Notes: generated by a model not told the origin, from the sequence alone. A stretch of DNA of 64,000 bases from Dethiobacter sp. (GCA_020725665.1 DYEO01000024.1:17408-81407), one strand, 5' to 3'. Shown: positions 1-48,998, numbered from the stretch's first letter. Program-made: numbers and translations.

Positions 1-348
1 AACCTCAAGAGAGGGGGAATTCTGCTCATCCAGATTGCCGTAGGCAGCCTGTATATGTTCAGTGTCCCCAGAGGATATATCGACGGATTCGTATCATGGT
101 GCAAGCAGGTGGTGGGTTTATGCCTGACCGCATTTTTGCAAGCGACCATCCTCATTGCAGGGCTCATGGTGTTTAACAGCAACATGCTTCTAGGTCTTGG
201 CCTTATGCTTGCAGCTTCAGAGATACCACGGATTGCCGGACAGTTCGGACTTGACACCAGCACCAGGGGCAACCTCATGAGCACCATGTATGCAGCGCAG
301 ACTGCGATGAACATAACGCGCACAGTGGTAAGGGCGGTGGCAAAATGA
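1..348 (+). CDS. Conjugative-transfer integral membrane protein, C-terminal part (ORF enters from upstream of window; VirB6/TrbL-like guess)
   Basis: Reading frame 1 is open from nt 1 through the stop at 346-348. The translated sequence is hydrophobic with predicted TM segments. It sits immediately upstream of VirB3/VirB4-like genes. Confidence 0.35.
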   Translation, partial: NLKRGGILLIQIAVGSLYMFSVPRGYIDGFVSWCKQVVGLCLTAFLQATILIAGLMVFNSNMLLGLGLMLAASEIPRIAGQFGLDTSTRGNLMSTMYAAQTAMNITRTVVRAVAK

Positions 349-914
349 CGGATATGAAGCTGGTCTATATTTGTTCTCCCTATGCCGGGGATATTGAATA
401 TAACATCAAAATGGCAATAGCATACTGCCGCTACGCCGCAGACTGTGGCGTAATTCCCCTGGCTCCACATTTGCTGCTGCCAAGATTTCTCTGTGAATCG
501 AATCCGGTAGAACGAGAGCTGGGAATCAAAATGGGGCTTAAGCTTCTTGCCTTATGCTCTGAGCTGTGGGTGTTCGGTGACCGGATATCTGAGGGTATGC
601 GGCGTGAAATTCAGGAAGCCGAAAGGCTCGGGATTAAAATTATTTTTCAAGATTCAAATAAAATTCAGGGAGTGATGAACATGAAGCGGTGGGGAATTTG
701 GGCAAAGCGCAGTGCTGCCTCTATCTTCGGCGCTGCTGAAGATTGGCTGAAATCGGAAGGAAAAGTGCAAATCTTTGATACTTATGAGGAAGCTGCCGAG
801 AAAGCAAGCACACTTATGAAAAACATTGGCACGGCAAATGTCTCCTATTATCCCAAGGAAATAGAAATTGAACTAAATGAAGATCAATCCTCTGGCATAA
901 ACATGAAGCTATAA
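345..914 (+). CDS. DUF4406 domain protein (nucleoside 2-deoxyribosyltransferase-like fold) with C-terminal extension
   Basis: The N-terminus MKLVYICSPYAGD...IPLAPHLLLPRFL...CSELWVFGDRISEGMRREI matches the DUF4406 family commonly carried by conjugative elements. The protein ends with SGINMKL, a tail motif that recurs on four other proteins. Confidence 0.65.
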   Translation: MTDMKLVYICSPYAGDIEYNIKMAIAYCRYAADCGVIPLAPHLLLPRFLCESNPVERELGIKMGLKLLALCSELWVFGDRISEGMRREIQEAERLGIKIIFQDSNKIQGVMNMKRWGIWAKRSAASIFGAAEDWLKSEGKVQIFDTYEEAAEKASTLMKNIGTANVSYYPKEIEIELNEDQSSGINMKL

Positions 915-927
915 GGAGGGGAAGAGT

Positions 928-1230
928 ATGTATATTTACCCGGATAATTTAAAATCCAAGGCGGTATTGTGGCTGTGGCAGCTTCGGGATATCGGCATCA
1001 TCGGCATCGGATGTCTTGTTTCTGTGTTTGCGCTCGTACAGCTCGGCATCCTGCTTCCGATAGTGGCAACTGCCTTCTATGCTTTTTTAACCATCCGTTT
1101 TGAGGACACTTCTATCCTTGATTTTATCAAGTATGCCTGTGCCTTTTTTATAACCAAACAGCAGTTATATGAATGGAAGCTTCAACCCGCTGTCCATTCA
1201 GAACCGAATAGAAAGCAGGTGGACAAATGA
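928..1230 (+). CDS. PrgI/TcpE-family (VirB3-like) small conjugation membrane protein
   Basis: 100 aa with two predicted TM helices, directly upstream of and overlapping the VirB4-like ATPase start (ATGA overlap). RBS GGAGGGGAAG precedes the start. Confidence 0.55.
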   Translation: MYIYPDNLKSKAVLWLWQLRDIGIIGIGCLVSVFALVQLGILLPIVATAFYAFLTIRFEDTSILDFIKYACAFFITKQQLYEWKLQPAVHSEPNRKQVDK

Positions 1231-1817
1231 GCAAAAAAGAAAAAAAGACAGCCAAACAAAAGATCTCCACACGGCAGCTCATAAACACAAAGGCCATCAC
1301 TGACTACAGCCTTTTGACTTACGGCCACGGCGAACTGGTATATTTTATCATCAAGCCGACCAACATCTCGGTTCTGTCGGAAGCCAGTATCGCCGCCCGG
1401 ATCTATGCTCTGATGACTGTTCTGAAAGGCATGGCTGAGATTGAAATGCTGTGTCTTAACAGCCGTGAAAACTTTGAGGACAACAAGCGTTTTTTGCGAA
1501 ACCGCATTGAACAGGAGGATAACCCCACTGTCCGAAAACTTTTGGAGGCAGACTTGACCTTCCTTGACCGCATACAGGTGCAGATGGCGACCGCCCGTGA
1601 ATTCCTCATTGTTATCCGGTTACGGGATGAAAAATCGAACGAAGTGTTCCCGTATTTAAACCGCATTGAAAAAACCCTGCGAGAGCAGGGCTTTTCCGTT
1701 AAAAGGGCCGAAAAAGAGGACATCAAAAGAATCCTTGCCGTGTACTTTGAGCAGAATGTGACTACCGAAAAATTTGAGGACTTCGATGGTGAGAGATGGG
1801 TGATTTTTGGTGACTAA
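1227..1817 (+). CDS. VirB4/TrsE-like conjugation ATPase, N-terminal segment (196 aa) separated from the ATPase domain ORF
   Basis: Position (after the VirB3-like gene) and sequence character fit the N-terminal domain of Gram-positive VirB4 homologs (Tn916 Orf16 / ConE / TcpF type). Length 196 aa + 610 aa (ORF 3447..5279) = about 806 aa, the usual VirB4 size. Confidence 0.5.
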   Translation: MSKKEKKTAKQKISTRQLINTKAITDYSLLTYGHGELVYFIIKPTNISVLSEASIAARIYALMTVLKGMAEIEMLCLNSRENFEDNKRFLRNRIEQEDNPTVRKLLEADLTFLDRIQVQMATAREFLIVIRLRDEKSNEVFPYLNRIEKTLREQGFSVKRAEKEDIKRILAVYFEQNVTTEKFEDFDGERWVIFGD

Positions 1818-1839
1818 ATGGAAGTTTTTGTGGTATAAT
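1810..1839 (+). promoter_or_regulatory. Sigma-A-like promoter for fic-1 (-35 GTGACT, extended -10 TGTGGTATAAT)
   Basis: TTGTGGTATAAT at 1828-1839 and GTGACT about 17 nt upstream. It lies 36 nt upstream of the Fic start at 1875, and the -35 overlaps the stop of the VirB4 N-terminal ORF. Confidence 0.4.
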
Positions 1840-1874
1840 TAAATGATAAATACAATGAAAACAGGTGAATAAAG

Positions 1875-2645
1875 ATGGATATATACAGATTACTTGACTT
1901 ATATAAGGCTGCCATAGACGAGCGAAGACCCTTCGAGGGTGAGGTGCTGACACAACTTAAAGAATACTATCGTATCGGACTCACTTGGTCATCCAATGCT
2001 CTTGAGGGAAATACCCTTACGGAAAGTGAAACTAAAGTGCTGCTTGAGGATGGATTGACTGTTGGCGGTAAACCCTTGCGTTATACCTTTGAGGCAATCG
2101 GTCACGCAAAAGCCTATGATTTCATGTTCACCCTGCTTAAAAATAGAACCATCACGGAAAGAGATGTTCTGACAATGCATCAAATGTTTTATGAGAATAT
2201 AGAGAAAGAATATGCCGGAAGATACCGTGACATGGATGTTTTCATCAGCGGCTCCAGATATCCTGTGGCAGAAACAAAACGCATACAGGAAGAAATGGAT
2301 GGACTTTTTCAGTGGATTGCAACCGAAAGAGAGAAGTTTCATCCGGTAGTGTTTGCAGCACAGCTCCATAAAAGATTTGTCTTCATTCATCCGTTTAAAG
2401 ACGGAACTGGCAGAATTGCGAGGCTCATTATGAACACCGCACTGATACAGGATGGATATCTTTTGGCTGTAATTCCTCCAGTGCTTAGACATGAATACAT
2501 TGAACTTCTTGAAAAAGCCCATAGAGATGACAAACCTTTTGAACGATTTATTGCGGAGCGGGTTATTGAATCCCAAAAGGAAGTCATGCGGCTTTTGCAC
2601 ATACCAATTCCAAAGCTGGACAGCGGCATGGGTATGCAGCTATAG
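1875..2645 (+). CDS. Fic/DOC family protein (AMPylator-type)
   Basis: Fic motif HPFKDGTGRIARL (HxFx(D/E)GNGRxxR variant) at the expected position. The C-terminal tail is SGMGMQL. Confidence 0.85.
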   Translation: MDIYRLLDLYKAAIDERRPFEGEVLTQLKEYYRIGLTWSSNALEGNTLTESETKVLLEDGLTVGGKPLRYTFEAIGHAKAYDFMFTLLKNRTITERDVLTMHQMFYENIEKEYAGRYRDMDVFISGSRYPVAETKRIQEEMDGLFQWIATEREKFHPVVFAAQLHKRFVFIHPFKDGTGRIARLIMNTALIQDGYLLAVIPPVLRHEYIELLEKAHRDDKPFERFIAERVIESQKEVMRLLHIPIPKLDSGMGMQL

Positions 2646-2726
2646 CATAGATATATCAAATTATGATAGCGGAACCTTATTGCTTTACTATTAAAAGCAC
2701 GATTGCCAGAGATATGGTGATGTTAT

Positions 2727-3182
2727 ATGGACAAAGTCAATATAGTCAAAGGATGGCTTGATTTTGCAAATAAAGATATCAGCTGCGCAAAGCATCTCCT
2801 GGGTATGCGTCCGGTTCCATTGGAAATCATCTGCTATCACAGCGAACAGGCAGCCGAAGAAGCGGTAAAAGGTTTTCTTATATACCATAATGTCGAACCG
2901 CCCCGTACTTACGACTTAGAAATGTTATGCCGTATGTGCATGGATATTGACAATACTTTTGATAAGTTGATTGAGCCTTGTGGAAGACTTGCTAGATATG
3001 GCGAGCAGATATATCCTTTAGAGATGCAAATTTCACACAACGATATGAGAACAGCCATTGCTGATGCTGATCATGTAATGGAATTTGTACTTCAAAGGCT
3101 TCAGCTTGCCGAGGAAATTTCACCGGATGACGATAGGCAAAAAGACCAGCAAGAAAAAACAGCAGGGCAGCAACTAACGTAA
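2727..3182 (+). CDS. HEPN domain protein
   Basis: About 150 aa alpha-helical protein with HEPN-like conserved segments (KDISCAKHLL ... YHSEQAAEEAVKGFLIYH). It follows the Fic gene in the same cassette. Confidence 0.5.
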   Translation: MDKVNIVKGWLDFANKDISCAKHLLGMRPVPLEIICYHSEQAAEEAVKGFLIYHNVEPPRTYDLEMLCRMCMDIDNTFDKLIEPCGRLARYGEQIYPLEMQISHNDMRTAIADADHVMEFVLQRLQLAEEISPDDDRQKDQQEKTAGQQLT

Positions 3183-3446
3183 TATATTCATTATAAATAC
3201 CAAGCGAAAATCGTTTGGTGTTTTATTTTTGCCTTTTTTAAGGCTGCAGCCATGTTCTCTATCTTTATTAATGAAGGGTGAGGCTGCTCTTTATCTATTT
3301 TCTCCTATGGACTTCCGCTGCTTCTTCGTTTATTGTGTGTGCTGAGGTGATTAGGATGGCAGTTGTACAGGATACTTGTGGGAGGCTTGCCATAAAAATT
3401 CAGGCAGGTCTTTTTTATTTGTTTTTCGAGGAGAGGAGATGATGCA

Positions 3447-5279
3447 ATGCCAAAAGCAAATCGAATGAATACTGCCGTGGCGCAGGAGGACGTCCGCATA
3501 CAGGAATTTCTTGATATGATCGCACCGTCGGTCATCAAATTCAACACCGACCACTTCATCTGCGGCAATACCTACCGCTGTGTGTGGGCGCTTCGCGAGT
3601 ACCCCACAGCCACGGAGGAACAGGCAATCCTGCGCCACCTTGGGGAAAAGGACGGTGTCACTTTAAAGATTTATGCCCGTCACGTCACCCCTGTTGAGGA
3701 AAAGAAGATCATTAGCAATGCCGCCAACAAGAACCGCATGAAGCGGAGCAACACCAATGACCTCCAGCAGACCGTCACCGCTGAGAGCAATCTGCAGGAT
3801 GTAGCCTCCATCGTAGCCAGCATGCACCGGAACAAAGAACCACTGCTCCATGCCGCCGTCTACATTGAGCTTTTAGCATACGACCTTGAGCAGTTAAAGC
3901 TGCTGCAGACCGAGGTGCTGACCGAACTGATCCGCTCTAAGCTCAACGTTGACCGCCTCATGCTCCGCCAGCAGCAGGGCTTTATATGCGTGATGCCTTC
4001 GGGTTGGAATGTGTTCGGAGATCAGTTTGAGCGGGTACTGCCGGCATCCTCAGTTGCCAACCTTTATCCTTTTAACTACTCCGGCAAAACCGATGCCAAC
4101 GGCTTCTACCTGGGCAGGGACAAGTTCGGCAGCAACATTCTTGTGGATTTTAATAAACGTGCCGATGACAAGACCAATGCAAACATTCTCATTCTTGGCA
4201 ACTCAGGACAAGGAAAGTCCTACCTCCTGAAGCTCATCCTATGCAACATGCGGCAGTCCGGCATGCATGTACTGGCGCTTGATCCGGAGATGGAGTACGA
4301 GGAACTAACCAACAACCTTGGCGGCTGCTTTATTGACTTAATGTCCGGCGAATATATCATCAATGTGCTGGAACCGAAAACATGGGATGAAAACGGCGAT
4401 CCCAGGGATGCTGAAGCTCCCCAGGCGTTCCGGCAGACCTCCAAACTCAGCCAGCACATCAGCTTTCTCAAGGACTTTTTCAGAACATACAAGGATTTTG
4501 ACGACCGGCAGATCGACACCATTGAAATCATGCTGGGGAAGCTGTATGAGCAATGGGGCATCACGGACCACAGCAACTTTGACCGGCTTAAATCCACCGA
4601 TTATCCCATCCTGTCCAACCTATATGAGCTGATTGAAAACGAATACAAAACCTTTGATGAAAGCAAACGCCAGCTTTATACCGCAGAAATCCTGCAGCAG
4701 ATCTGCCTTGGACTCCATTCCCTATGCAAGGGTGCGGAGTCTAAATTTTTTAACGGGCATACCAACATCACCAGCAGCCATTTCATCACCTTCGGTGTGA
4801 AAGGACTGCTGCAGGCAAGCAAAAATATCCGCAACGCCCTGCTGTTTAACGTGCTGTCCTTCATGTCCAACGAGCTTTTAACCAAGGGCAATACGGTAGC
4901 AAGCATCGATGAGTTTTACCTGTTTCTTAACAACCTCACAGCGGTCGAGTATATCCGCAACTTTATGAAGCGTGTCCGCAAAAAGGACAGCGCCGTGATC
5001 CTTGCCAGCCAGAACCTGGAGGATTTCAATATTGACGGAATCCGGGAGTATACCAAGCCTTTGTTTTCCATACCGACTCATGCCTTCCTCTTTAATGCCG
5101 GAAATATTGATGCCAAATTCTACATCGATACCCTGCAGCTGGAGCAGAGCGAATATAACCTGATCCGCTACCCGCAGCGCGGTGTGTGTCTCTACAAATG
5201 CGGCAACGAGCGGTATAACCTCATGGTGACCGCGCCGGAACACAAGGCAAGGCTCTTTGGAAAGGCGGGCGGCAGATGA
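3447..5279 (+). CDS. VirB4/TrsE-like conjugation ATPase, ATPase-domain segment
   Basis: Walker A ILILGNSGQGKSYLLKLI, Walker B-like VLALDPE, and overall VirB4 (DUF87/TraC-type) architecture. The segment has its own RBS (GGAGAGGAG) and ATG start. Confidence 0.8.
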   Translation: MPKANRMNTAVAQEDVRIQEFLDMIAPSVIKFNTDHFICGNTYRCVWALREYPTATEEQAILRHLGEKDGVTLKIYARHVTPVEEKKIISNAANKNRMKRSNTNDLQQTVTAESNLQDVASIVASMHRNKEPLLHAAVYIELLAYDLEQLKLLQTEVLTELIRSKLNVDRLMLRQQQGFICVMPSGWNVFGDQFERVLPASSVANLYPFNYSGKTDANGFYLGRDKFGSNILVDFNKRADDKTNANILILGNSGQGKSYLLKLILCNMRQSGMHVLALDPEMEYEELTNNLGGCFIDLMSGEYIINVLEPKTWDENGDPRDAEAPQAFRQTSKLSQHISFLKDFFRTYKDFDDRQIDTIEIMLGKLYEQWGITDHSNFDRLKSTDYPILSNLYELIENEYKTFDESKRQLYTAEILQQICLGLHSLCKGAESKFFNGHTNITSSHFITFGVKGLLQASKNIRNALLFNVLSFMSNELLTKGNTVASIDEFYLFLNNLTAVEYIRNFMKRVRKKDSAVILASQNLEDFNIDGIREYTKPLFSIPTHAFLFNAGNIDAKFYIDTLQLEQSEYNLIRYPQRGVCLYKCGNERYNLMVTAPEHKARLFGKAGGR

Positions 5280-5348
5280 TCAAAAACCTGAGAAATCCAG
5301 TATGGGTGAAACGCCTGTGCTGCGACAAGGGGGTGAAGGTTTTTGGAG

Positions 5349-6374
5349 ATGAAGGACCAGCGCTTCGGCATCGAAATCGAATTGACGGGACTGTCCCGTC
5401 TGCGTGCCGCCCAGGTCATGGCGGAATACTTCGGCACGCCGGTTTCCCATGACGGGGGCTATTACGGCATCTATTCCGTCCTGGACGGCCAAAGCCGCCG
5501 GTGGAAGGTCATGAGCGACGGCAGCATCACTACAGAGAAAAAAGAAGGGCGGCGGATTATTCCGGCCGACAGCACCTACAGCGTGGAGCTGGTCAGTCCC
5601 ATTTGCAAATACGAGGATATTGAAACCATACAGGAGATTGTGCGGAAACTCCGGGCTGCCGGAGCCATTGCCAATGCAAGCTGCGGCATCCATGTCCATG
5701 TGGATGCGTCACATCACAATGCTAACACCCTGCGAAATATCACCAACATCATGGCCAGCAAGGAGGACTTGATCTACAAGGCGCTGCAGGTGAACGTGGC
5801 ACGGGAACGCCGCTACTGCAAAAAGGTGGAGCAGAGCTTTTTGGAGGAACTCAACCGCAAGAAGCCGAAAACCCTGGAGCAGGTCAGCCGGATCTGGTAC
5901 AACGGCAATGACGGCAGGCATGAGCATTACCACAACAGCCGGTACCACTGCCTGAACCTCCACAGCGTGTTCCAGAAAGGTACGATTGAATTCAGGCTGT
6001 TCAACGGCACCACCCATGCCGGAAAAATCAAGGCATACATCCAGCTCTGTCTCGCCATCAGCCACCAGGCACTGACACAGAGGTGCGCCAGCCGAATCAA
6101 AACCCAGAGCACCAATGAAAAATATACCTTCCGCACCTGGCTTCTGCGGCTGGGCCTTATCGGCGATGAATTCAAAACCGCACGGCTGCATTTGCTGGAG
6201 CATCTGGAGGGCTGCATTGCCTGGAAAGACCCCCAGCAAGCCGAGCGGCAAAAGGAACGGTTAAAGCAGAAGAAGGAAAAGGAACAGGCAGCCGCAGCTT
6301 TGGAAGAACAAAATCAAGAGGACATCGAACAGACCGAGGCTGAAGAATGCCCCGGTCTTTCTATGTCCATGTAG
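5349..6374 (+). CDS. Amidoligase family enzyme (glutamine-synthetase-like, conjugative-element associated)
   Basis: The GIEIEL start and GIHVHVD motif are typical of the putative amidoligase family (PF12224). RBS AGGGGGTGAAGG sits upstream of ATG 5349 (the ORF track begins at TTG 5343). The tail is PGLSMSM. Confidence 0.65.
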   Translation: MKDQRFGIEIELTGLSRLRAAQVMAEYFGTPVSHDGGYYGIYSVLDGQSRRWKVMSDGSITTEKKEGRRIIPADSTYSVELVSPICKYEDIETIQEIVRKLRAAGAIANASCGIHVHVDASHHNANTLRNITNIMASKEDLIYKALQVNVARERRYCKKVEQSFLEELNRKKPKTLEQVSRIWYNGNDGRHEHYHNSRYHCLNLHSVFQKGTIEFRLFNGTTHAGKIKAYIQLCLAISHQALTQRCASRIKTQSTNEKYTFRTWLLRLGLIGDEFKTARLHLLEHLEGCIAWKDPQQAERQKERLKQKKEKEQAAAALEEQNQEDIEQTEAEECPGLSMSM

Positions 6375-6389
6375 GAGGACTGATCAAAC

Positions 6390-6884
6390 ATGAAAAGCAA
6401 AACCTTGTACATTGCTTACGGAAGCAATCTCAACTTGCAGCAGATGGCATTTAGATGCCCCACTGCCAAGGTAATCGGGGCAAGTAAAATCAAGGACTAT
6501 GAGCTGCTGTTCCGCGGCGGTCGCAGAGGTTCGGTAGCAACGGTAGAACCGCTCAAGGGAAGCCATGTTCCTGTTCTTTTATGGGAACTGAAAGAAAAAG
6601 ACCTGCAGGCCCTTGACCGTTATGAGGGGTATCCCCGTTTTTACCGCAAGGAAATCCTTGATGTCGAGCTTAACGGCAAGACCATTTCTGCGATGGTTTA
6701 TATCATGAATGACGGACATCCCTTCGGATCTCCGTCCGATTACTATCTTAATGCCATCATGGAGGGCTACAAAAGCGCAGGTTTCGATACCGAGTACCTG
6801 GAGCAGGCGGTGGAAAAATCCATCCGGCTTGCTAAGGAACAACAGCCGGAACAGGAAAATCTGTTTGACTTGAAATGGTGGTGA
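6390..6884 (+). CDS. Gamma-glutamyl cyclotransferase (GGCT/AIG2-like)
   Basis: YIAYGSNLN N-terminal motif and GGCT fold length. It lies adjacent to the amidoligase gene, a known pairing in mobile elements. Confidence 0.75.
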   Translation: MKSKTLYIAYGSNLNLQQMAFRCPTAKVIGASKIKDYELLFRGGRRGSVATVEPLKGSHVPVLLWELKEKDLQALDRYEGYPRFYRKEILDVELNGKTISAMVYIMNDGHPFGSPSDYYLNAIMEGYKSAGFDTEYLEQAVEKSIRLAKEQQPEQENLFDLKWW

Positions 6885-7981
6885 TGGTTATGGCTGATCC
6901 GGCTACCATTACCCTTGCGGTCAGGGCGGCCATCGCCGCGGCAACCGACAAAAGGACATGGAAGGTTGTCGGCGTTCTTGTCGCCGCCATCCTGACGCCC
7001 TTCATTCTTATCGTTGTAATGATCGTGAGCCTGCTCTCGGCTGCGGCGGATCACAACAGCAACGCCATAGAATTGTGCTTCAACGGCGGCGCGATCTCTT
7101 CCCGGGTCCCCTCCGATTACGCCGCCTATATCCGGGATATGCAGAACAGCTTCGCCGGGATTGACACCGCCATCTCCGATATATCATCACTGGTGGAGGA
7201 CGGCAGTATCGACAGCACAAGGGTTAAGGCAATTTTCTATTCTCTGTTCTTCGGCGCTGAAAATCTGCAGATGGATAGCTCGGACTACCGTGCCTTTGCT
7301 GACTGCTTTGTCCGTTATGAAACCCGCACCCGAACCGTGGACAATGGCGATGGCACAACCTCGGAGGAAGAATACACCGTGGCTGTGCCGCTTAAATCAC
7401 TGCCGGAAATTTACGGAAACCTTCAGAGCGCCCTCGGTAGGAAAATCACTTATGAGGAACAGGCCAACGCTTCTGAGATTTACTACCGCATTGGCTACGG
7501 TGGCAGTGTCCCCACCTATGGAAAAGAATTCGATGTGTGGGTAAACGGACTGCCGCTGTCCGATGCACCCTTTACCGGCTTGGATGGTTTCTGTTCTCCC
7601 CTCAGGGAAAACTGGCGCAGCATGGTTACCTCGGAATTTGGCTACAGAACTGATCCCTTCACCGGCCAGCGCAGGGGACATTCCGGACTGGACATGGGAG
7701 CGTCTAAAGGCACACCGATCCATGCAGCCCTTGATGGTACGGTGCTGTTTGTGCGCTATAAGAACACAGGCTATGGCTATCATTTGGCCATCGACCATGG
7801 CGGCAGCTTCGTTACCTTATATGCCCATTGCTCCAAAATCCTTGTCACTGAGGGGCATACCGTGAAGGCGGGCGACATCATCGCACAGGTCGGTTCCACA
7901 GGCCGGAGTACCGGAGAGCACTTGCACTTTGAGGTACGAGTGAAGGGTGAAAAACAAAACCCAAGAAACTATCTGCCGTAA
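6875..7981 (+). CDS. M23/LytM family peptidase (conjugation-associated cell-wall hydrolase, TcpG/Orf14-like)
   Basis: N-terminal TM segment and a C-terminal M23 domain with HSGLDMGASKGTPIHAALDG ... GYHLAIDHGG ... STGEHLHFEV (HxxxD and HxH motifs). Confidence 0.85.
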   Translation: MVVMVMADPATITLAVRAAIAAATDKRTWKVVGVLVAAILTPFILIVVMIVSLLSAAADHNSNAIELCFNGGAISSRVPSDYAAYIRDMQNSFAGIDTAISDISSLVEDGSIDSTRVKAIFYSLFFGAENLQMDSSDYRAFADCFVRYETRTRTVDNGDGTTSEEEYTVAVPLKSLPEIYGNLQSALGRKITYEEQANASEIYYRIGYGGSVPTYGKEFDVWVNGLPLSDAPFTGLDGFCSPLRENWRSMVTSEFGYRTDPFTGQRRGHSGLDMGASKGTPIHAALDGTVLFVRYKNTGYGYHLAIDHGGSFVTLYAHCSKILVTEGHTVKAGDIIAQVGSTGRSTGEHLHFEVRVKGEKQNPRNYLP

Positions 7982-8092
7982 GCAGGGTGAAAAACGATGC
8001 CGTGGATTAGAAAAATGGGTAGCTTCCGATGGCGAGACTTCCTGTTAGAATAAACCTATAGCCTTCGTAATTCTGTCTAAGCTTATTAAAAG

Positions 8093-8103
8093 TGTGGTAT
8101 AAT
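8093..8103 (+). promoter_or_regulatory. Extended -10 promoter element TGTGGTATAAT for fic-2
   Basis: The same 11-mer as upstream of fic-1, located about 27 nt upstream of the fic-2 start. Confidence 0.35.
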
Positions 8104-8129
8104 GAAACAAATATTGTAAAAAAGGAGGA

Positions 8130-8933
8130 ATGCGCTTGGATCAATATAACCGGGCTGTTGAACTGTGGCAGTCATACAAAATTGCGTCCGCCGCTGATTT
8201 AGATAAATATCTTGACAGTTTCCGCATCCTGTTTGCGTTTCATTCCGGGAAAATAGAGAACGAGGAAATCACCTACCACGATACAAGAGAAATCTTTGAA
8301 AACGGCAGGGTTGTGGGCTACACCGGGAGTCCCCGTGCCCTGTTTGAGCAGCAAAACCAAAAGCTGTGCTATGAGTTTTTGAAAGAAAAAATCGTCAAGA
8401 AGGAGCCTCTCAGCATCGAGTTGGTCAAGGAGATGCACAAGGTTCTCACCGGCGGGACCTATGATGAGCGCAGGTATGTCGCCAATGAGGAACGGCCGGG
8501 TGAGTTTAAAAAACACGATTATGCGACCGGCGTCCATGAGGTGGGCTCCGCCGCGGAGGATGTGGAAAAGGACATGACAGAGCTGATTGCCGAAGTCAAC
8601 GCGTATGAGGGCAAAGATGTCTTAAAAGCCGCCACCTATCTTCACGCCAGGTTTGAGTATATTCATCCCTTTGCAGACGGCAACGGGCGTGTCGACAGGA
8701 CGCTGATGAATTACTATCTCATGACACATGATCACCCGCCCCTTATTGTCTATAACGAGGATAAGCGGATGTATTACGAGTGCCTGCAAAAGTATGATGA
8801 AGCCGAGGACTTAAATCCCCTTTATGAGTTTCTCAAATATGAAACCGAAAAGACATGGGAAAAGGTGCTGGCTCTTGCCGATGGCAGGAAGCCGGAACGC
8901 AAAGGTTTATCAGATTTTACCCAGAGTATGTAG
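8130..8933 (+). CDS. Fic/DOC family protein (second copy)
   Basis: Canonical Fic motif HPFADGNGRVDRTLMNY. The start may be TTG 8136, given RBS AAAGGAGG at 8121-8128. Confidence 0.85.
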   Translation: MRLDQYNRAVELWQSYKIASAADLDKYLDSFRILFAFHSGKIENEEITYHDTREIFENGRVVGYTGSPRALFEQQNQKLCYEFLKEKIVKKEPLSIELVKEMHKVLTGGTYDERRYVANEERPGEFKKHDYATGVHEVGSAAEDVEKDMTELIAEVNAYEGKDVLKAATYLHARFEYIHPFADGNGRVDRTLMNYYLMTHDHPPLIVYNEDKRMYYECLQKYDEAEDLNPLYEFLKYETEKTWEKVLALADGRKPERKGLSDFTQSM

Positions 8934-9008
8934 CAAACAGAATAATTTAGAAGCGAAAGTCATCTCGAAAAGGGATGGCTTTTTTGTTTGTCAAGGAGGG
9001 AAGAAAAA

Positions 9009-12189: not shown

Positions 12190-13965
12190 ATGCCCAGGAT
12201 CATATTCAAATGCCGGTACTTGAAAAATGCACCCAAAGCACACCTGGTAAATCTGGTAGAATATGTTGCTACTCGTGAAGGTGTTGAAAAAATTGATGAC
12301 AGTTCCAGAACTCTTCCTGCGACAAAAAAACAGCAGCAGCTGATTTCTGAAATCCTGAAAATACTGCCGGATACTGCTGACCTATTCGAGTACGAGGACT
12401 ATCTGAAAAATCCGACAAGCGAAAATGCATCGGAGTTTATTTCTATTGCTCTTGAAAACAATCTCGATCTGATCGGCAAAAAGAAAAACTTTGTAGACTA
12501 CATCGCCAATCGTCCGAGAGTTGAAAAGTTCGGCAGCCACGGACTCTTTACGGATGAAGGTGTACCTGTTGTACTATCAAAAGTTGCTGATGAAGTATCA
12601 AACCATTCCGGAAATGTGTGGACAAATATTGTATCCCTCAGGCGCGAAGATGCGTCAAGGCTGGGATATGACAATGCAAAGTCGTGGCAGGATTTGATCC
12701 GGGCACAGCGGAACGTTATCGCGGAAAACATGAAAATCGCTCCGGAAAATTTGCGATGGTATGCTGCTTTTCACAATGAGAGCCATCACCCGCATATCCA
12801 CCTGATTGCTTACTCCATCAATCCCAAAGAAGCCTATGTCACAAAGCAAGGGATAGAAAACATGCGGGGAAGTCTTGCGCGGGAAATCTTCCGCCAGGAC
12901 TTGATGCAGATTTATGAAAAGCAGACGGAACGACGCAATTCCCTGAATAGACAGAGTCGTGAGGCCATGCAGGACATCATTGCTCAAATTCGTTCAGGGA
13001 TATGTGAAAATAAAAATATAGAAGAATTGATTGCCCGCCTTGCTGAAAAGCTCAAGCATACTTCCGGCAAGAAACAATACGGTTATTTAAAAGCTTCCCT
13101 CAAGGTGCTCGTTAATCAGATTGTTGATGAGCTTGCAAAGGATGAAAGAGTGGCAAAATTATACGATAGTTGGTACGAAATGCGCAATGAAGTTTTAAGT
13201 ACGTATGCTGACAAGCTGCCGCCGCCTCTTCCATTGTCGCAGCAAAAAGAATTCAAAAGCATTAAAAATATGGTGATTGCTGAAGCGTTAAATATCGGCA
13301 GTCACCATTTCACTTTTGGGCCGGACGAGGAACAGGATATATCAATAAAAGGTGACATTGATATTGCTGCTGGTATCACATGTTTTGAAGAATCTGCAAA
13401 GCTCGGAAATGTCAACGCACAGTATATGCTCGGCAGGATTTATCTTGAATCGGACAGCGAGCATGAAAATGTAGAAAAGGCATTGCAGTGGCTGGGGAAA
13501 GCTGCGGACAACGGGAATGCTCTCGCACAGTATGCAATGGGGAAGCTGTACCTTACAGGAAACCATCTAGAGAAAGATGCCGTAAAGGCTGTGGAACTGT
13601 TCACCAAATCTGCAGTACAAGGCAATCAGCATGCGCAATATGCCCTCGGCAAACTGCATCTTTTGGGGCATGATGTCAGGCAGGATAAGGAAACAGCGGT
13701 GCATTGGCTGTCGGCAGCTGAAGCACAGGGAAATATCTATGCAAAGTATTTGTTGGAACGCATGGATTCCTTCAAAGACCCATCAATACTCCTTGCAGCA
13801 ACACGCTTGATGCATCACTTGGGCAACATCTTCAGAGAGAAGTATCAGAAAGCTTTTGGCAATCCTCTCATCCAGGTTGACCGCAAGCTCCACAAAAAAC
13901 TCATGGAGAAAAAACTGGCGCAAGGTCACGCATATAACGACCATGCGCCGCATCAAAGCTATTAG
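12190..13965 (+). CDS. MOBP-family relaxase/mobilization nuclease with C-terminal Sel1-like repeats
   Basis: Histidine triad HNESHHPHIHL typical of MOBP relaxases. The C-terminal 200 aa contain repeated AQY.LG.LY..G motifs (Sel1/TPR-like). Confidence 0.8.
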   Translation: MPRIIFKCRYLKNAPKAHLVNLVEYVATREGVEKIDDSSRTLPATKKQQQLISEILKILPDTADLFEYEDYLKNPTSENASEFISIALENNLDLIGKKKNFVDYIANRPRVEKFGSHGLFTDEGVPVVLSKVADEVSNHSGNVWTNIVSLRREDASRLGYDNAKSWQDLIRAQRNVIAENMKIAPENLRWYAAFHNESHHPHIHLIAYSINPKEAYVTKQGIENMRGSLAREIFRQDLMQIYEKQTERRNSLNRQSREAMQDIIAQIRSGICENKNIEELIARLAEKLKHTSGKKQYGYLKASLKVLVNQIVDELAKDERVAKLYDSWYEMRNEVLSTYADKLPPPLPLSQQKEFKSIKNMVIAEALNIGSHHFTFGPDEEQDISIKGDIDIAAGITCFEESAKLGNVNAQYMLGRIYLESDSEHENVEKALQWLGKAADNGNALAQYAMGKLYLTGNHLEKDAVKAVELFTKSAVQGNQHAQYALGKLHLLGHDVRQDKETAVHWLSAAEAQGNIYAKYLLERMDSFKDPSILLAATRLMHHLGNIFREKYQKAFGNPLIQVDRKLHKKLMEKKLAQGHAYNDHAPHQSY

Positions 13966-15593: not shown

Positions 15594-15685
15594 CAATATT
15601 ATAACTGCATATTTGAAGAAAGCCATGTGCGAATGAAAAACCATTGGTGCATGGCTTTCTCAATTTTGCAAGAAGGAGGAAACCA

Positions 15686-17524
15686 ATGCAAGCATCACAG
15701 GTGGTTACTTTAATCATAGCTGCTGCAACTATGTTTGGAGTCATCGGTTTTATCGTTCTCTTGGCTCATTACTATACCTTAAATGGCATCAAGGCCAGGA
15801 CTGTAGGTGACGGCCAGCATGGCACGGCAAGGTTCGCAACGAAGAATGAAATCAAGAAGACCTATGCTCATGTACTCTATGAGCCGGAACGGTGGCGCAA
15901 GGGTATCAACCTGCCCAAGGTGCAGGGTCTGGTTGTGGGATGCAAAACGGCTCCAGGATCGGTCACCGCTCTTGTAGACCAGGGGGATGTGCATGCATTG
16001 ATGATCGGTGCAGCAGGTGTCGGCAAGACCGCAAATTTCCTTTATCCCAATCTGGAATATGCTTGTGCTTCCGGGATGAGCTTTATTACCACCGACACCA
16101 AGGGCGACCTTTACAGGAATTACGGATGCATCGCCAAGGACTACTATGGCTACGATGTGTCCGTCATTGACCTGAGAAACCCCACCCGCAGCGATGGCAA
16201 CAATATGCTGCACCTTGTGAACAAATATATGGATGAATACCTTGCCAATCCCGATAATCTCTCAGCAAAAGCCAGGGCGGAGAAATATGCAAAGATCATT
16301 GCCAAAACCATCGTCAACTCCGGGGGACTGGATGCAGGTTCCTACGGCCAGAATGCATTTTTCTACGATGCAGCCGAAGGCTTGCTGACCGCTGTCATTT
16401 TATTGGTGGCGGAATACTGTCCAAACGAAAAACGCCATATCATATCGGTCTTTAAGCTCATACAGGACTTGCTGGCTCCCTCTGGCGTAAAAGGCAAAAA
16501 TCAGTTTCAACTGCTTATTGAAAAGCTTCCGTCGGAGCATAAGGCAAGATGGTTCGCAGGAGCAGCATTAAACACTGCGGAGCAGGCGATGCAAAGCGTC
16601 CTGTCGACAGCCCTTTCCCGGTTGAATGCATTCCTGGACTCAGAACTGGAGCAGATACTCTGTTTTGACACCGCCATCGATGCAGAGCGTTTTTGCAAAA
16701 GAAAGTCTGCCATCTTCCTTGTCATGCCGGAAGAAGACAATACAAAATATTTTCTAATTTCTTTAATTGTCCAGCAGCTCTACCGGGAGATACTGTCGGT
16801 AGCCGATGAGCAAGGAGGAAGGCTTCAAAACCGTGTCATGATGTACCTGGATGAGATCGGCACTATACCAAAAATTGAAAGCGCAGAGATGATGTTTTCC
16901 GCTTCCCGTTCCCGCCGCGTTTCCATCGTAGCCATCATACAGAGCTTTGCGCAGCTTGAAAAGAACTACGGCAAGGAAGGAGCCGCCATCATCATCGACA
17001 ACTGCCAGGACACCATTTTTGGAGGCTTTGCACCAAACTCGGAATCAGCAGAGATACTCTCCAGAAGCCTTGGCAATAAGACGGTTTTATCAGGTTCGGT
17101 TACCCGGGGGAAGCATGATCCGTCCCAATCCTTGCAAATGATCCAGCGTCCCCTGATGACTCCCGACGAATTGAAGACCCTGCCCAAAGGCAGCTTCATT
17201 GTCGCAAAGACCGGCGCCTGTCCTATGAAAACCAGTTTAAAGCTGTTCATTGAATGGGGTATCCGGTTTGAAAAGGTGTATGAGCTGCAGGAAAAATCCG
17301 CCCGCAAGGTTGCCTATGCTGACAAAAAAGAACTTGAAGAGGAAATCGTCAAACGGCACATATCATATGAGGATATAGAAGAACAGGAACCATACTCCAC
17401 ATCAGCTCAAGGCGGCATGTCCCTTGCACCTGCTGAAGAGATTCAGGGGAAAGCATTGAAGTCCAGACTGCAAGCAAAGATAAAAGCACAGCAGCAAATG
17501 GAGCCGCCGCTGCGTACAGATTAG
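15686..17524 (+). CDS. Type IV secretion coupling protein (VirD4/TraG/TcpA family)
   Basis: N-terminal TM helix and Walker A GAAGVGKTANFLYPN, with T4CP length. RBS AAGGAGGAAA lies upstream of ATG 15686 (the ORF track begins at TTG 15644). Confidence 0.8.
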   Translation: MQASQVVTLIIAAATMFGVIGFIVLLAHYYTLNGIKARTVGDGQHGTARFATKNEIKKTYAHVLYEPERWRKGINLPKVQGLVVGCKTAPGSVTALVDQGDVHALMIGAAGVGKTANFLYPNLEYACASGMSFITTDTKGDLYRNYGCIAKDYYGYDVSVIDLRNPTRSDGNNMLHLVNKYMDEYLANPDNLSAKARAEKYAKIIAKTIVNSGGLDAGSYGQNAFFYDAAEGLLTAVILLVAEYCPNEKRHIISVFKLIQDLLAPSGVKGKNQFQLLIEKLPSEHKARWFAGAALNTAEQAMQSVLSTALSRLNAFLDSELEQILCFDTAIDAERFCKRKSAIFLVMPEEDNTKYFLISLIVQQLYREILSVADEQGGRLQNRVMMYLDEIGTIPKIESAEMMFSASRSRRVSIVAIIQSFAQLEKNYGKEGAAIIIDNCQDTIFGGFAPNSESAEILSRSLGNKTVLSGSVTRGKHDPSQSLQMIQRPLMTPDELKTLPKGSFIVAKTGACPMKTSLKLFIEWGIRFEKVYELQEKSARKVAYADKKELEEEIVKRHISYEDIEEQEPYSTSAQGGMSLAPAEEIQGKALKSRLQAKIKAQQQMEPPLRTD

Positions 17525-32460: not shown

Positions 32461-32543
32461 AAACACTTGATATGGCTGGATTTGTGTGGTACTGTGTGTT
32501 GCTGATAAAGCATCATGTACTGAAAAGTGAAAGGAGGAAGCGT

Positions 32544-34145
32544 ATGCCAAAAGTAAGAGTCATCAAGCCAATCAATTGCATGGAAGCAGAAGCTGAAGCT
32601 CCGAAACTGCGGGTGTGTGCATACTGCCGGGTCAGCTCGGACCACACCGGGCAGCTGCAATCCTTTTCAGCACAGGTGGAGTACTACACCCGGCTGATAG
32701 AAAGCAACGATGCCTGGACTTTTGCCGGAATTTATGCGGACGAAGGCATCAGCGGCACCGCCAAAGACAAGAGGGATGAGTTTCTAAGGCTCATTGCCGA
32801 CTGTGAAGCCCAAAAGGTGGACATGGTCATTACCAAGTCCATATCCAGGTTTGCAAGAAACACCGCCGACTGCATTGAGACGGTGAGAAAGCTGAAAACG
32901 CTGGGGATTGCCGTTTTTTTCGAGAAAGAAAACATCAACACCCTGTCTGCTGAAAGTGAGCTGCTGATGACGGTTTTAAGCTCCATTGCCCAGGAGGAAT
33001 CCATATCCACCTCCAAAAACAACCGGTGGGCGATACAAAAAAGGTTTATGAAAGGTGAATGGAAGCCTTCTTACCTTCCCTACGGCTATAAGAAAGACAA
33101 GGACGGAAGAATCATCATCAATGAAGAAGAAGCCGCTATTGTAAAAAGGATTTATACTGACTACCTGAACGGGAAAGGAACGTACGTCATCGCAAAAGAG
33201 CTCACGGAAGAAGGAGTTCCAACAAGAAAAGGGGCGGAAGCCTGGGGAGAAAATGTGGTGAAGGAAATCCTGACCAATGAAAAATACTACGGAGACATAC
33301 TCCTTCAGAAGACCTTTACCACCGACACATTGCCCTTCCGGCGAAAGCGGAACCGGGGACAAAAACAGTGCTACTATATCGCCAACGATCACGAACCCAT
33401 TATTTCAAAAGAGCAGGCTGAACGAGTCAGGGAGATCATGGAGCAGCGAAAAACCGAAAAAGCCATGGTGGATACCGACCCCCGAAAATATAACCAGCGT
33501 TATCCGTTCAGCCGCAAAATCCAGTGCGGCAAATGCGGAAGCACTTTCAAAAGGCAAATCATATACAAGGGCAAACCCTACCAGACAGAGCAGTGGTGCT
33601 GCACCAAGCATATCATGAATCGGGCGGAATGCGGCATGGCAGCCGTCAAGGACAAGCACATCAAAGCTGCATTCATCAATCTATATAACAAGCTGAAAAG
33701 CAATTATGACAAAATATTAACCCCCCTGGCCGAGGATTTGAAAAAGCTTCACTGCGGCAGGGAGTATGAATCCCAGGTCAAGGAAATCAATAAAAGAATA
33801 ACGGAACTTACCGAACAGAGTCATGTATTAAGTAGACTGAGGTCGAAAGGATATCTTGACTCTGTTCTTTTTATAGAGCAAAGCAATCTGATCACCAAGC
33901 AGCTCCACGAAGCCAAAAAGCAGCGAAGCAAGCTGTTCGAATATAACGGATTTAATGATGAGGCCGCCAGGACGGAGGAACTGATCGCTTTCCTCAAAAA
34001 GCAGGATGATCTGATAGAGAGCTTTGATGAAGACATTTTTTCACTGATGGTAGAAAGGATCATTGTAAAATCCAAGCTTGAAATTGCCTTCCGTCTGATC
34101 AATGGACTGGAGCTTCCGGAAATCATCGGAGAGGAAGTGGGCTAA
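32544..34145 (+). CDS. Large serine recombinase (resolvase/invertase catalytic domain plus recombinase domain plus zinc ribbon)
   Basis: Catalytic serine motif AYCRVSSDHTGQLQSFSAQ, recombinase domain, and Cys-rich zinc ribbon. RBS AAGGAGGAAG lies upstream of ATG 32544. Confidence 0.9.
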   Translation: MPKVRVIKPINCMEAEAEAPKLRVCAYCRVSSDHTGQLQSFSAQVEYYTRLIESNDAWTFAGIYADEGISGTAKDKRDEFLRLIADCEAQKVDMVITKSISRFARNTADCIETVRKLKTLGIAVFFEKENINTLSAESELLMTVLSSIAQEESISTSKNNRWAIQKRFMKGEWKPSYLPYGYKKDKDGRIIINEEEAAIVKRIYTDYLNGKGTYVIAKELTEEGVPTRKGAEAWGENVVKEILTNEKYYGDILLQKTFTTDTLPFRRKRNRGQKQCYYIANDHEPIISKEQAERVREIMEQRKTEKAMVDTDPRKYNQRYPFSRKIQCGKCGSTFKRQIIYKGKPYQTEQWCCTKHIMNRAECGMAAVKDKHIKAAFINLYNKLKSNYDKILTPLAEDLKKLHCGREYESQVKEINKRITELTEQSHVLSRLRSKGYLDSVLFIEQSNLITKQLHEAKKQRSKLFEYNGFNDEAARTEELIAFLKKQDDLIESFDEDIFSLMVERIIVKSKLEIAFRLINGLELPEIIGEEVG

Positions 34146-35126
34146 ATGGCGCAAAGACATATGCCTTTTGGCTATAAAATCATAGACGGAGCTGTAACCA
34201 TCGAACCGGATAAAGCAGACCTGGTCAGAAAAATGTTCAATGATTTTATATCGGGCATATCCTTGAAGCAGATGGCAAAGGACCTGACAGAAATGAAGGT
34301 TCCCAATGCCAACGGAAAGCCCTCCTGGAATCACGGCTCCATCGGAAAAATTTTGAGCAACTGCAAATACGTCGGAAGTGATTTCTATCCTGCCATTATC
34401 CCGGAGGAAGTATTCAATGCCGCCAACAGGCTCAGAGAAGAAAAGAACACCCGGCTTGGCAGAAATGTCAATTACTATGCCAACGGCATCGCCAGCACTT
34501 ATCCCTTCAGCGGCAGATTGATATGCGGGGAATGCGGAAGTGTTTTCAAAAGGTACACCGAACACCATGACAAAAATAAAAAATGCAACTGGAAATGCAA
34601 ACGGTATATCGTTGACAACAGGGTATGCTGCAAAAGCGGCGTGGTTGATGACAAGCAGCTTGAAGCTGCCTTTATACAGATTATCAACCGGGTGATGGAG
34701 AACCCTGAAATGATAGAAAAGCGTCCAGCAGTTAATGCTGTGACTGAGAGTGTTGAATTAAGAAAGATAAAATTGCAAATATCCAACGGATTCGATCAAA
34801 ACGGCTTGGAACCGTCGGAAATGGCACAGCTGCTATTCAAAAGAGCTGCAGAACAATATCGAATCTCTCAAATAGATGACTTTGAATACAAAACCAAGAA
34901 ATTGAAAGCGGTGCTTGAGAACTGTAAGCCCATTAAAGCATTTGATGAGGCTTTATTCAAAGCGACCATCAAAAGCATAACAGTGGAAATCACCGGGCAG
35001 CTCCGGTTTGAACTGATCAATGGAGTGATGCTAAGCACCTCATATACACTACGGAGAAAAGGAGGAAAGGCCCATGGCGATGGGACAAAGAACAGTATCG
35101 GTAATCCCTGCAAATCCGATTTATGA
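34146..35126 (+). CDS. Recombinase-domain protein lacking the N-terminal catalytic resolvase domain
   Basis: Aligns with the recombinase/zinc-ribbon/coiled-coil portion of large serine recombinases (LICGECGSVFKRY zinc ribbon) but has no YCRVS catalytic region. The TAAATG stop/start overlaps the upstream recombinase. Confidence 0.6.
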   Translation: MAQRHMPFGYKIIDGAVTIEPDKADLVRKMFNDFISGISLKQMAKDLTEMKVPNANGKPSWNHGSIGKILSNCKYVGSDFYPAIIPEEVFNAANRLREEKNTRLGRNVNYYANGIASTYPFSGRLICGECGSVFKRYTEHHDKNKKCNWKCKRYIVDNRVCCKSGVVDDKQLEAAFIQIINRVMENPEMIEKRPAVNAVTESVELRKIKLQISNGFDQNGLEPSEMAQLLFKRAAEQYRISQIDDFEYKTKKLKAVLENCKPIKAFDEALFKATIKSITVEITGQLRFELINGVMLSTSYTLRRKGGKAHGDGTKNSIGNPCKSDL

Positions 35127-40821: not shown

Positions 40822-40854
40822 TAAAGAGTTTTAAATTATTGCGGGGGGATAGAA

Positions 40855-42825: not shown

Positions 42826-42837
42826 GGAGATGTTGTA

Positions 42838-45005: not shown

Positions 45006-45747
45006 CCTGAATACGGGTCGGCTAGTAGACTGTCATTTTCATTTGGACCTGTTTGAAAATCCAGTTAGGATCGCAACTGAAATTGAGGCCTCAGGGGTTG
45101 AGGTAATAGCTGTTACGAATACGCCCTCTGTTTTTAAAGCCACTCAGAACCTTGTGAGTTGCTATAAATATATTCACGCTTCTCTGGGTTTACATCCCCA
45201 ACTTGTGGGAACGCGGAGCCAGGAACTTGTACTCATGGAGAATCTAATGAAGGAAACCCGTTTTATTGGGGAAGTAGGCCTGGATTACACTACCGGAAAC
45301 GAACAGGAAATTAAGCTCCAGCGAAAGGTTTTCGAAGAGATTTTAAAGCAATGCGCAGCAGAAGGAAATAAAATTCTCAATGTTCATTCACGTAGGGCAG
45401 CCAGTGATGTTATTGCTATGATTGGGCCTAATTATCCGGGACGAGTTATTCTTCACTGGTTTAGCGGAACAATAAAAGACCTAAAAAAAGCAATGGAGTA
45501 TGGTATGTACATATCAGTCAATATTTCCATGGTAAGATCGGCTAAAGGTCAAAGCCTAATAAAGCATTTGGACCCTAATCTGGTACTCACTGAGACTGAC
45601 GGTCCTTTTGTTCGTGTCGGAAAAGTACCAGCGGTTCCTGCTGAGGTCATTAATGTGATTTATTTTCTCGCTAATGCTTGGAAATGCGATTTGGAGGAAG
45701 CAAAGGCTCGTGTCTATGCAAACTATTTCAGAGCTGTTAATTTTTAA
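44998..45747 (+). CDS. qatD: TatD-family metal-dependent hydrolase/DNase (QatD-like)
   Basis: DCHFHLD, GEVGLDY, NVHSR, HWFSG and TETDGPF motifs. Confidence 0.85.
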   Translation: MNSLNTGRLVDCHFHLDLFENPVRIATEIEASGVEVIAVTNTPSVFKATQNLVSCYKYIHASLGLHPQLVGTRSQELVLMENLMKETRFIGEVGLDYTTGNEQEIKLQRKVFEEILKQCAAEGNKILNVHSRRAASDVIAMIGPNYPGRVILHWFSGTIKDLKKAMEYGMYISVNISMVRSAKGQSLIKHLDPNLVLTETDGPFVRVGKVPAVPAEVINVIYFLANAWKCDLEEAKARVYANYFRAVNF

Positions 45748-48988: not shown

Positions 48989-48998
48989 TTGATAAGGG

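Follow-up and report, generated by a model that had tools for sequence, protein, structure and literature searches.

The stretch of DNA analyzed here (64,000 nucleotides of Dethiobacter sp., GCA_020725665.1 DYEO01000024.1:17408-81407, hereafter the window) holds part of a clostridial (Bacillota) integrative conjugative element (ICE), and in the family to which this element belongs the conjugation ATPase VirB4 is very probably natively encoded by two genes. The gap between these genes would be the principal cargo slot of the family, and the Fic and HEPN genes that fill it in the window would be neighbors through the history of the slot, not partners in a functional pair. VirB4 is the most conserved protein of type IV secretion systems (T4SS), and serves as the marker by which conjugative systems are found and classified. 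A large family encodes this protein in two pieces, in a form that current annotation does not recognize, and its recognition keeps such loci from being taken as disrupted or defunct. A preliminary description of the window, made from the sequence alone, had correctly located the four open reading frames (ORFs) listed below and the Fic and HEPN genes among them, yet had read the arrangement as a VirB4 gene interrupted by a cassette.

1227-1817, plus strand: N-terminal piece of VirB4, a stand-alone protein of 196 residues (ORF196); ORF list and profile match
1875-2645, plus strand: class II Fic gene, 256 residues; PF02661 (E 2.6e-20), PADLOC and motif comparison
2727-3182, plus strand: orphan HEPN gene, 151 residues, no MNT partner; PF05168 (E 3.6e-15) and alignment of slot HEPN proteins
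3447-5279, plus strand: VirB4 body, 610 residues (ORF610), which holds the remaining part of the N-terminal region and, after it, the ATPase domain with Walker A/B motifs; NCBIfam, 4AG5, and ratio of nonsynonymous to synonymous substitution (dN/dS)

Two genes for one VirB4

The VirB4_plasma profile of NCBIfam (NF045975, 894 positions) is covered from 91 to 287 by ORF196 (E 7e-6) and from 293 to 885 by ORF610 (E 4e-88), and the two ORFs therefore fill adjacent, non-overlapping stretches of a single VirB4 profile. ORF610 also covers positions 184-730 of the CD1110-family VirB4 model of NCBIfam, is matched by the VirB4_CagE, TraC, and TrbE models and by AAA_10, TraG P-loop, and DUF87 of Pfam, and carries a Walker A motif, GNSGQGKS, that can be read straight from the sequence. 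Its scores are under the curated equivalog cut-offs of the two NCBIfam models concerned (296 versus 590 for NF045975, 157 versus 325 for NF045971), so that the match is one at family level and the VirB4 of the window belongs to a distinct subfamily. The solved C-terminal domain of VirB4 (4AG5) corresponds to ORF610 residues 212-602 (E 1e-48); the gene break therefore lies inside the N-terminal region, and not at the boundary of the ATPase domain. A search of PDB sequences with ORF196 gave no direct match.

The most direct view of the junction comes from relatives in which the two parts are fused. With ORF196 as the query, 1.84 billion cluster representatives yielded 988 matches, and among the best 150, six (P0132, P0133, P0139, P0167, P0175, and P0191; 40-59% identity) run from an ORF196-like part directly into ORF610-like sequence. 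All six are collinear across the junction with ORF196 and ORF610 of the window set end to end, and no residues are lost, which bears out the earlier expectation that the halves abut. In this alignment a conserved block, ...FDGER(W/F)..., closes the first part and another, ...(V/I)xxFLDxIAPS..., opens the second, the break falling in a variable linker of 5-20 residues. The downstream segments of P0133, P0167, P0175, and P0132 are garbled in a manner that suggests frameshift errors in the contigs; the fusion argument leans mainly on P0139, a sequence free of such flaws along 543 residues, and on the linker common to P0132, P0133, and P0139. As judged from these profile and junction alignments, ORF196 and ORF610 are two parts of one VirB4 that abut without loss.

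Two routes to a single chain were considered and rejected. A split intein or trans-splicing is ruled out by the collinearity of the fused relatives, which have no extra residues at the junction, and a frameshift fusion by the 1.6 kb of cargo, which is unbridgeable, as well as by the overlap at empty sites, where there is no canonical slippery heptamer. A separate peculiarity concerns P0001 (314 residues), a homolog of the N-terminal piece in which an internal stretch of about 118 residues (VLKGVAEIEM...EQNVT) occurs twice in tandem; this may be an assembly artifact or a real duplication.

The split as the rule in the family

Homologs of ORF196 number 5,547 in a collection clustered at 90% identity, and the best 120 of them are nearly all exactly 196 residues long, with 95-100% identity, from hosts that include Desulforamulus, Thermanaerosceptrum, Desulfitibacter, Gudongella, and many metagenome-assembled genomes (MAGs). 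A set of 88 related loci, with 76-98% identity, was assembled from 8 contexts retrieved by exact protein and 80 retrieved from contigs of one genome per species. In 88/88 the counterpart of ORF196 stops at the same codon and the ATPase part is a separate ORF, with no fused case (0/88). Nearly all of these loci have the two frames intact, and the distance between the genes varies, the extremes being -11 nt and over 5.6 kb. In 17 of the 80 species-level loci there is no insert between the two VirB4 genes, and there are still two genes. The states of the junction are as follows.

Stop/start overlap (ATGAnTAA): 9/80 species-level loci
Spacer of 11-50 nt with ribosome-binding site (RBS): 8/80 species-level loci
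Spacer of 148 nt: 1/80 species-level loci
Insert of at least 448 bp: 58/80 species-level loci
Second gene beyond the fetched flank: 4/80 species-level loci

The same holds at larger distances. Among 98 representatives of clusters at 50% identity, being those whose match extends to the C-terminus of ORF196, 78 finish within 6 residues of the ORF196 end, and the N-terminal piece is fused to the body in only 6; fission, and not fusion, is the dominant state in the VirB4 family of the window. A plasmid of Clostridium estertheticum, at 32% identity, presents the gene order DUF3852, TrbL, a small ORF, a 199-residue ORF, 12 nt, and a 618-residue ORF, the two VirB4 pieces being annotated by NCBI as 'hypothetical protein' and 'DUF87 domain-containing protein'. 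The plasmid collection gave only two matches, both distant, so that these elements are essentially chromosomal ICEs.

Since all 88 loci are split regardless of what the slot contains, and the split persists down to 32% identity, it is far older than the Fic/HEPN cassette, which is restricted to a subclade with at least 97% identity in ORF196. The claim that the cassette had split VirB4 is therefore not sustained, the N-terminal 200 residues being a separate gene product throughout these relatives. Nor did the direct repeats sought at the edges of the cassette appear: a repeat search of 1700-3560 gave no direct or inverted repeats beyond short matches of chance size, and the ORF list and domain scan revealed no recombinase or transposase in 1818-3446.

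The gap between the genes as a cargo slot

The spacing of the VirB4 gap varies most among the backbone junctions, which identifies this gap as the principal, though not the sole, cargo hotspot of the family. The proportion of loci with more than 300 nt at each junction is given below.

N-terminal piece / ATPase body: 76% of loci
DUF7768 / VirB3-like: 47% of loci
GGACT / M23: 21% of loci
ATPase / amidoligase: 15% of loci
Amidoligase / GGACT: 4% of loci
TrbL / DUF7768: 0% of loci
VirB3-like / N-terminal piece: 0% of loci

At species level the slot is occupied in 58 of the 80 loci and empty or near-empty in 18. The gap ORFs of 89 sequences (the 88 loci and the window) form 77 protein clusters, the representatives of which were assigned to families by Pfam. 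Two unrelated Fic types are found, one of class II as in the window and one of 211 residues behind a 63-residue TxxxEG protein (FicTA/VbhTA-like), and Fic-family genes of these two classes are present in 24/80 species-level loci. Other cargo comprises HEPN, with or without MNT (PF01909); an ars operon (low-molecular-weight phosphatase/ArsC-type, ArsA, ArsD, ACR3-type SBF, and ArsP); a metallo-beta-lactamase-fold protein, a glyoxalase/bleomycin-resistance protein, and a chloramphenicol acetyltransferase (CAT); GNAT acetyltransferases, a metallophosphatase, a DDE transposase of an insertion sequence (IS), a Schlafen/AlbA_2 protein, and a GGDEF protein. Insertions are tolerated where the two VirB4 genes meet, and this junction has become the main cargo slot of the family. 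In ICEs of gut, sediment, and digester Clostridia, it is a predictable spot for accessory genes, among them those of defense, of toxin-antitoxin systems, and of resistance to arsenic and antibiotics.

Two side observations concern the variable sites. In the slots of L013-L015, L018, L048, and L049, a TxxxEG protein of 63-71 residues is encoded upstream of the 211-residue Fic (HPFREGNGRAQR), and this pair resembles a toxin-antitoxin system made up of a class I Fic and a VbhA/FicA-type antitoxin, a different Fic module in the same slot. The second variable site of the family is the junction between the DUF7768 and VirB3-like genes (914-928 in the window), where tyrosine-recombinase genes are found in or beside the DUF7768 gene in L006 (2728-6535; three genes), and in L091 and L093 (two visible at the locus edge).

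The history of the slot in the window was reconstructed by segment-by-segment comparison with relatives and direct reading of the sequences. In L012, Fic and HEPN are followed by a 96-residue ORF, here called C1; the slot of the window equals that of L012 less 284 bp of C1, of which a remnant of 28 codons is left at 3356-3442. Slots of the L001 type correspond to the window less 2667-3110, the HEPN gene having been deleted with its final ~70 nt kept. In L006, L011, and L100 the segment 1870-2574 is lost, which is that of Fic, whose 5' leader and 3' end are still visible, and a complete MNT-HEPN is present instead. In L027 and L065 C1 stands alone, and homology to the window from 3287 onward starts 8 nt past the stop of the first gene. 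This comparison delimits the Fic-HEPN cargo proper to approximately 1819-3286 and the C1 remnant to 3287-3446. Members of the C1 family (96-111 residues) lie just 5' of the ATPase gene in 13 loci (for example, L006 8621-8911 and L100 5783-6073), and the C1 ORF has no Pfam or PADLOC match. As reconstructed, the slot of the window consists of a class II Fic gene led by a putative promoter and an orphan HEPN gene with a putative terminator, followed by the deletion remnant of C1, a hairpin, and the RBS of the ATPase gene.

Expression signals within the slot

Besides the genes, the slot holds the following features.

1810-1839, plus strand: promoter-like site GTGACT-18 nt-TGgTATAAT (1810-1815, 1831-1839); consensus scan
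3195-3223, plus strand: terminator-like hairpin with T-run after HEPN; scan and RNA fold
3287-3446, plus strand: C1-unit remnant, with the C1 5' region, remnant ORF 3356-3442, hairpin 3380-3414 with T-run to 3426, and RBS 3430-3438; comparison with L012, L006, and L027

The first hexamer of the promoter-like site overlaps the TAA stop of ORF196, and the site is kept in L001 and L006, ahead of Fic or MNT-HEPN. The extended -10 site pointed out in the preliminary description exists, but the count of promoter-like sites is not above shuffle expectation for the region (4 found versus 6.4 expected). The fresh start of the second gene was also correctly recognized: ORF610 has its own RBS (GGAGAGGAG, 3430-3438) and an ATG at 3447. 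Two hairpins between HEPN and ORF610 had gone unmentioned. The second has a stem of 12 pairs (3380-3414) with a T-run behind it, is situated ~20 nt 5' of the ORF610 RBS, and may be a leaky terminator or an insulator. The Rfam scan of 1-9000 (E<=1) returned no match, so that the hairpins before ORF610 do not correspond to a described riboswitch or leader, and the promoter scan found none for ORF610 between 3224 and 3446. In several other cargo loci (L027, L065, and L013) a hairpin with a T-run is likewise found 20-40 nt 5' of the ATPase gene, in sequences that otherwise differ.

In the simplest relatives, the overlap of stop and start codons (ATGAnTAA) suggests that translation of the two genes may be coupled. 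In cargo-bearing loci the ATPase gene would employ its own RBS, together with read-through of the cargo terminators or a weak internal promoter, in the window within 3224-3350.

The Fic and HEPN genes

The slot Fic matches PADLOC PDC-S04 and SoFic with E of about 1e-26. Its own polypeptide carries the inhibitory motif SNALEG at residue 40, in agreement with (S/T)xxxE(G/N), and the protein is accordingly of class II and needs no partner. The active-site motif (2388-2423, residues 172-183) reads HPFKDGTGRIAR, where the consensus is HxFx(D/E)GNGRxxR; Thr occupies the position at which 25/25 other slot copies, and 9/9 other compared contigs that carry the identical HEPN, have Asn (...GNGR...). The allele with Thr is confined to the source contig (JBFMEO010000037.1); it could have reduced activity or none, or could reflect faulty assembly.

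A second Fic gene, at 8130-8933, lies downstream of the M23 peptidase gene and encodes 267 residues with the canonical motif HPFADGNGRVDR; it matches PADLOC PDC-S04 with E 4e-39, and SoFic as well. The close relatives examined (L001-L004, L007, and L008) have this gene as well, and those with a Fic-bearing slot therefore have two Fic genes in the transfer region. Both Fic genes are compatible with defense-type cargo, and the slot Fic could serve as cargo of a defense or addiction type.

The HEPN gene begins 81 nt after Fic, a spacing in which there is no MNT ORF. Where MNT-linked copies read KIHDL and PRYP, the HEPN of the window reads RTYDL and QIYP, with Tyr and Ile at the positions of the His (HDL) and the Arg (RYP). 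A PADLOC search with this protein gave no match. Truncation or a frameshift affects its gene in L005, L015, and L017, and its dN/dS of 0.3-0.45 is relaxed with respect to the backbone, yet not neutral. MNT is present in L006, L011, and L100. Fic without HEPN is found in 17/80 species-level loci, versus 1/80 with both. Derivatives that lack either gene are common, so that the association of Fic with HEPN is not obligate. The slot also occurs with Fic only, with HEPN only, or with MNT-HEPN, and deletion scars are visible in such forms, which runs counter to the earlier suggestion of a coupled module. From the comparison of slots we conclude that the pairing would reflect shared descent of one slot variant rather than functional coupling.

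Constraint and function of the two-piece VirB4

Pairwise Nei-Gojobori estimates over the fetched loci give a median dN/dS of 0.085 for the 196-residue gene (62 distinct sequences) and 0.067 for the 610-residue gene (40 distinct sequences); both VirB4 pieces are under strong purifying selection. Elements with an occupied slot and an ORF196 of at least 97% identity are present in Desulforamulus, Desulfitibacter, Thermanaerosceptrum, and several MAG lineages. An isolate of Desulfitibacter alkalitolerans has Fic and HEPN exactly as arranged in the window, while the slot holds Fic only in an isolate of Desulforamulus putei, and MNT-HEPN plus a 96-residue ORF in one of Thermanaerosceptrum fracticalcis. 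That near-identical elements reside in different genera indicates that the two-piece VirB4 evidently works, and their occurrence with occupied slots in isolates of these genera argues for recent horizontal spread of the split together with its cargo. Of the two outcomes offered in the preliminary description, two working polypeptides and inactivated transfer, these data favor the first and not the second. The two products presumably assemble in a non-covalent manner, the 196-residue protein docking onto the 610-residue ATPase, probably together with the VirB3-like protein encoded upstream, and rebuilding a normal VirB4. The two-gene form thereby offers a natural experiment on the docking of the N-terminal region onto the ATPase.

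A copy in a different condition is that of a metagenomic relative (L103 6512-8591), where the ATPase gene is cut to 467 residues and followed directly by the second Fic gene, an arrangement that implies loss of the VirB4 3' end and of everything up to and including the M23 gene, and thus a decayed copy.

Weighing of alternative explanations

Several points weigh against a native two-gene VirB4 with an unpaired cargo. The association of the 196- and 610-residue polypeptides is putative, and the original fission may itself go back to an old insertion that has since disappeared. With two terminator-like hairpins and no convincing promoter ahead of it, the expression of ORF610 in the present arrangement is unexplained. 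On the side of the cargo, at least 23 contigs encode an identical HEPN protein, in every case within the slot and directly after Fic, and the common Fic+HEPN arrangement, along with a HEPN dN/dS below neutrality, would be expected of a functional link, improbable as we consider it.

The most ambitious of the alternatives, which we regard as unlikely, holds that the fission of VirB4 is adaptive, rather than a neutral accident, and provides a dedicated cargo dock within the core transfer operon. Fic genes would be recurrently installed in this dock, besides the second Fic gene at 8130-8933, the ATPase would be gated separately by the hairpins, for example through antitermination during ICE induction, and Fic would be tied to conjugation, whether it is transferred, helps the element to become established, or acts as a defense gene expressed from a silent element. 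Antitermination systems are known in conjugation operons of Gram-positive bacteria.

Distinctly less probable is the proposal that Fic and HEPN form a functional two-gene module, in which, for instance, Fic AMPylates and so neutralizes a HEPN toxin by analogy with MNT-HEPN, or the two act as an anti-defense pair. In addition to the recurrence of the identical HEPN next to Fic and to the HEPN dN/dS, this proposal can invoke the fact that HEPN adjoins another Fic type in L015 and L018, and the precedent of MNT-HEPN systems, whose antitoxin is a nucleotidyltransferase. The greater frequency of Fic without HEPN, the simple HEPN deletions of L001-type slots, the association of HEPN with MNT and without Fic in three loci, and its truncated or frameshifted copies all speak against it, as do the absence from the window HEPN of the His and Arg of MNT-linked copies and the self-inhibition of Fic by SNALEG.

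Still harder to maintain is the idea that the 196-residue protein is now an independent accessory factor and that the 610-residue protein alone is the working ATPase. The Thermoanaerobacter VirB4 was indeed crystallized as the C-terminal domain alone (4AG5), and the coupling of the two genes is lost in the 58 cargo loci; nonetheless, the 196-residue gene is always kept between the VirB3-like and ATPase genes, is constrained as strongly as the latter, and is fused to the body in six lineages. Decay of the split VirB4 into a pseudogene, the element being a non-transferable remnant, deserves hardly any credence: it would account for the terminator-like hairpins 5' of the 610-residue gene and for the decay events of the slot (the C1 remnant, the N-to-T change in the Fic motif, and the degenerate HEPN residues), but not for the low dN/dS, the nearly universal intactness of the frames, more than 5,500 homologs, or near-identical copies in different genera. 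Equally negligible is the interruption of an intact VirB4 in the lineage of the window, at a domain boundary, by a Fic + HEPN cassette with its own promoter and restart, since the lower GC content of the cassette 1818-3446 (~40%, versus 48-53% in the flanks), its promoter-like site, halves that add up to a normal VirB4, and the existence of fused relatives are outweighed by the split in every locus whether filled or insert-free, the restriction of the cassette to one subclade, and the lack of flanking repeats.

Relation to known systems

The joined ORFs resemble the VirB4 of monoderm bacteria (NF045975, Mbov_0397; NF045971, CD1110; Thermoanaerobacter 4AG5) over their whole length, Walker A/B motifs included, and occupy the same operon position, after TrbL/VirB6-like and VirB3-like genes. 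Unlike these single-chain proteins, the VirB4 of the window has its first ~196 residues as a separate gene product. VirB3-VirB4 fusions and other gene fusion and fission variants exist among T4SS, and the family considered here likewise divides VirB3, the N-terminal piece, and the body in more than one way: three genes are present in the window, the N-terminal piece and body are fused in proteins of the P0139 type, and all is one gene in P0175.

A literature search of incomplete coverage found no description of a split VirB4 in ICEs of Firmicutes; 'split' is used in other senses by Cury et al. (2017). The nearest parallel found is in the archaeal Ced system, where two polypeptides, CedB and CedD, contain different parts of the VirB4 N-terminal domain and are proposed to be jointly equivalent to VirB4; both are ATPases and paralogs of each other (PMC11868833). 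In contrast, the 196-residue piece of the window has no ATPase domain whatsoever, and the element is bacterial and conjugative.

With regard to the cargo, ICE backbones of the SXT/R391 family are known to have variable regions, or cargo hotspots. The logic is the same as in the VirB4 gap, with a fixed intergenic position of the backbone that receives differing genes of resistance, toxin-antitoxin, and defense types. Unlike the hotspots of SXT/R391, however, that of the window lies between the halves of a gene that is single and essential in other T4SS, and no repeats indicative of recombination sites were found. The slot cargo includes known toxin families, namely MNT-HEPN and Fic (class I FicT/VbhT with a VbhA-like antitoxin, and class II), from which the genes of the window differ in that HEPN has neither MNT nor two otherwise kept residues, and Fic has Thr in place of the canonical Asn.

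The VirB3-like gene and the surrounding element

The gene upstream of ORF196 is the following.

928-1230, plus strand: small membrane protein of 100 residues, VirB3-like by inference; ORF list, position, and fusion in P0175

This ORF overlaps the start of ORF196 by 4 nt, and its counterpart is always immediately 5' of ORF196 in relatives. It has no Pfam or NCBIfam match, and is labeled VirB3-like because of its position and of its fusion in P0175, a metagenomic sequence of 435 residues in which one reading frame runs from the VirB3-like ORF through the N-terminal piece into the first part of the ATPase body. P0175 represents the opposite extreme to the three-gene state of the window, though its tail is garbled and the quality of its contig doubtful.

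Conjugation genes 5' of VirB4 in relatives include TrbL_5 and DUF3852, and among the genes of the element itself are those of TrbL/VirB6-like type and serine recombinases. Downstream of VirB4, the window encodes an amidoligase, GGACT, an M23 peptidase, the second Fic, and an actin-like ALP protein, as well as a Toprim/DUF3991 protein and, farther downstream, a large methylase/helicase pair. The other features located are listed below.

12190-13965: MobL relaxase (window domain scan)
15644-17524: VirD4-type coupling protein, T4SS-DNA_transf (window domain scan)
32472-34145: large serine recombinase with Resolvase, Recombinase, and Zn-ribbon domains
34146-35126 and 35074-36708: two long, similarly sized ORFs right after the serine recombinase
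37056-39083: OLD-family ATPase-nuclease
48999-52217: type I restriction R subunit

The segments 32472-36708 and 37056-52217 are probably the integration end of the ICE and a defense island. In Desulfitibacter alkalitolerans (L101 1-1296), a gene for a group II intron reverse transcriptase/maturase lies 5' of DUF3852, in the place that a DUF8193-8195 protein gene occupies in other copies.

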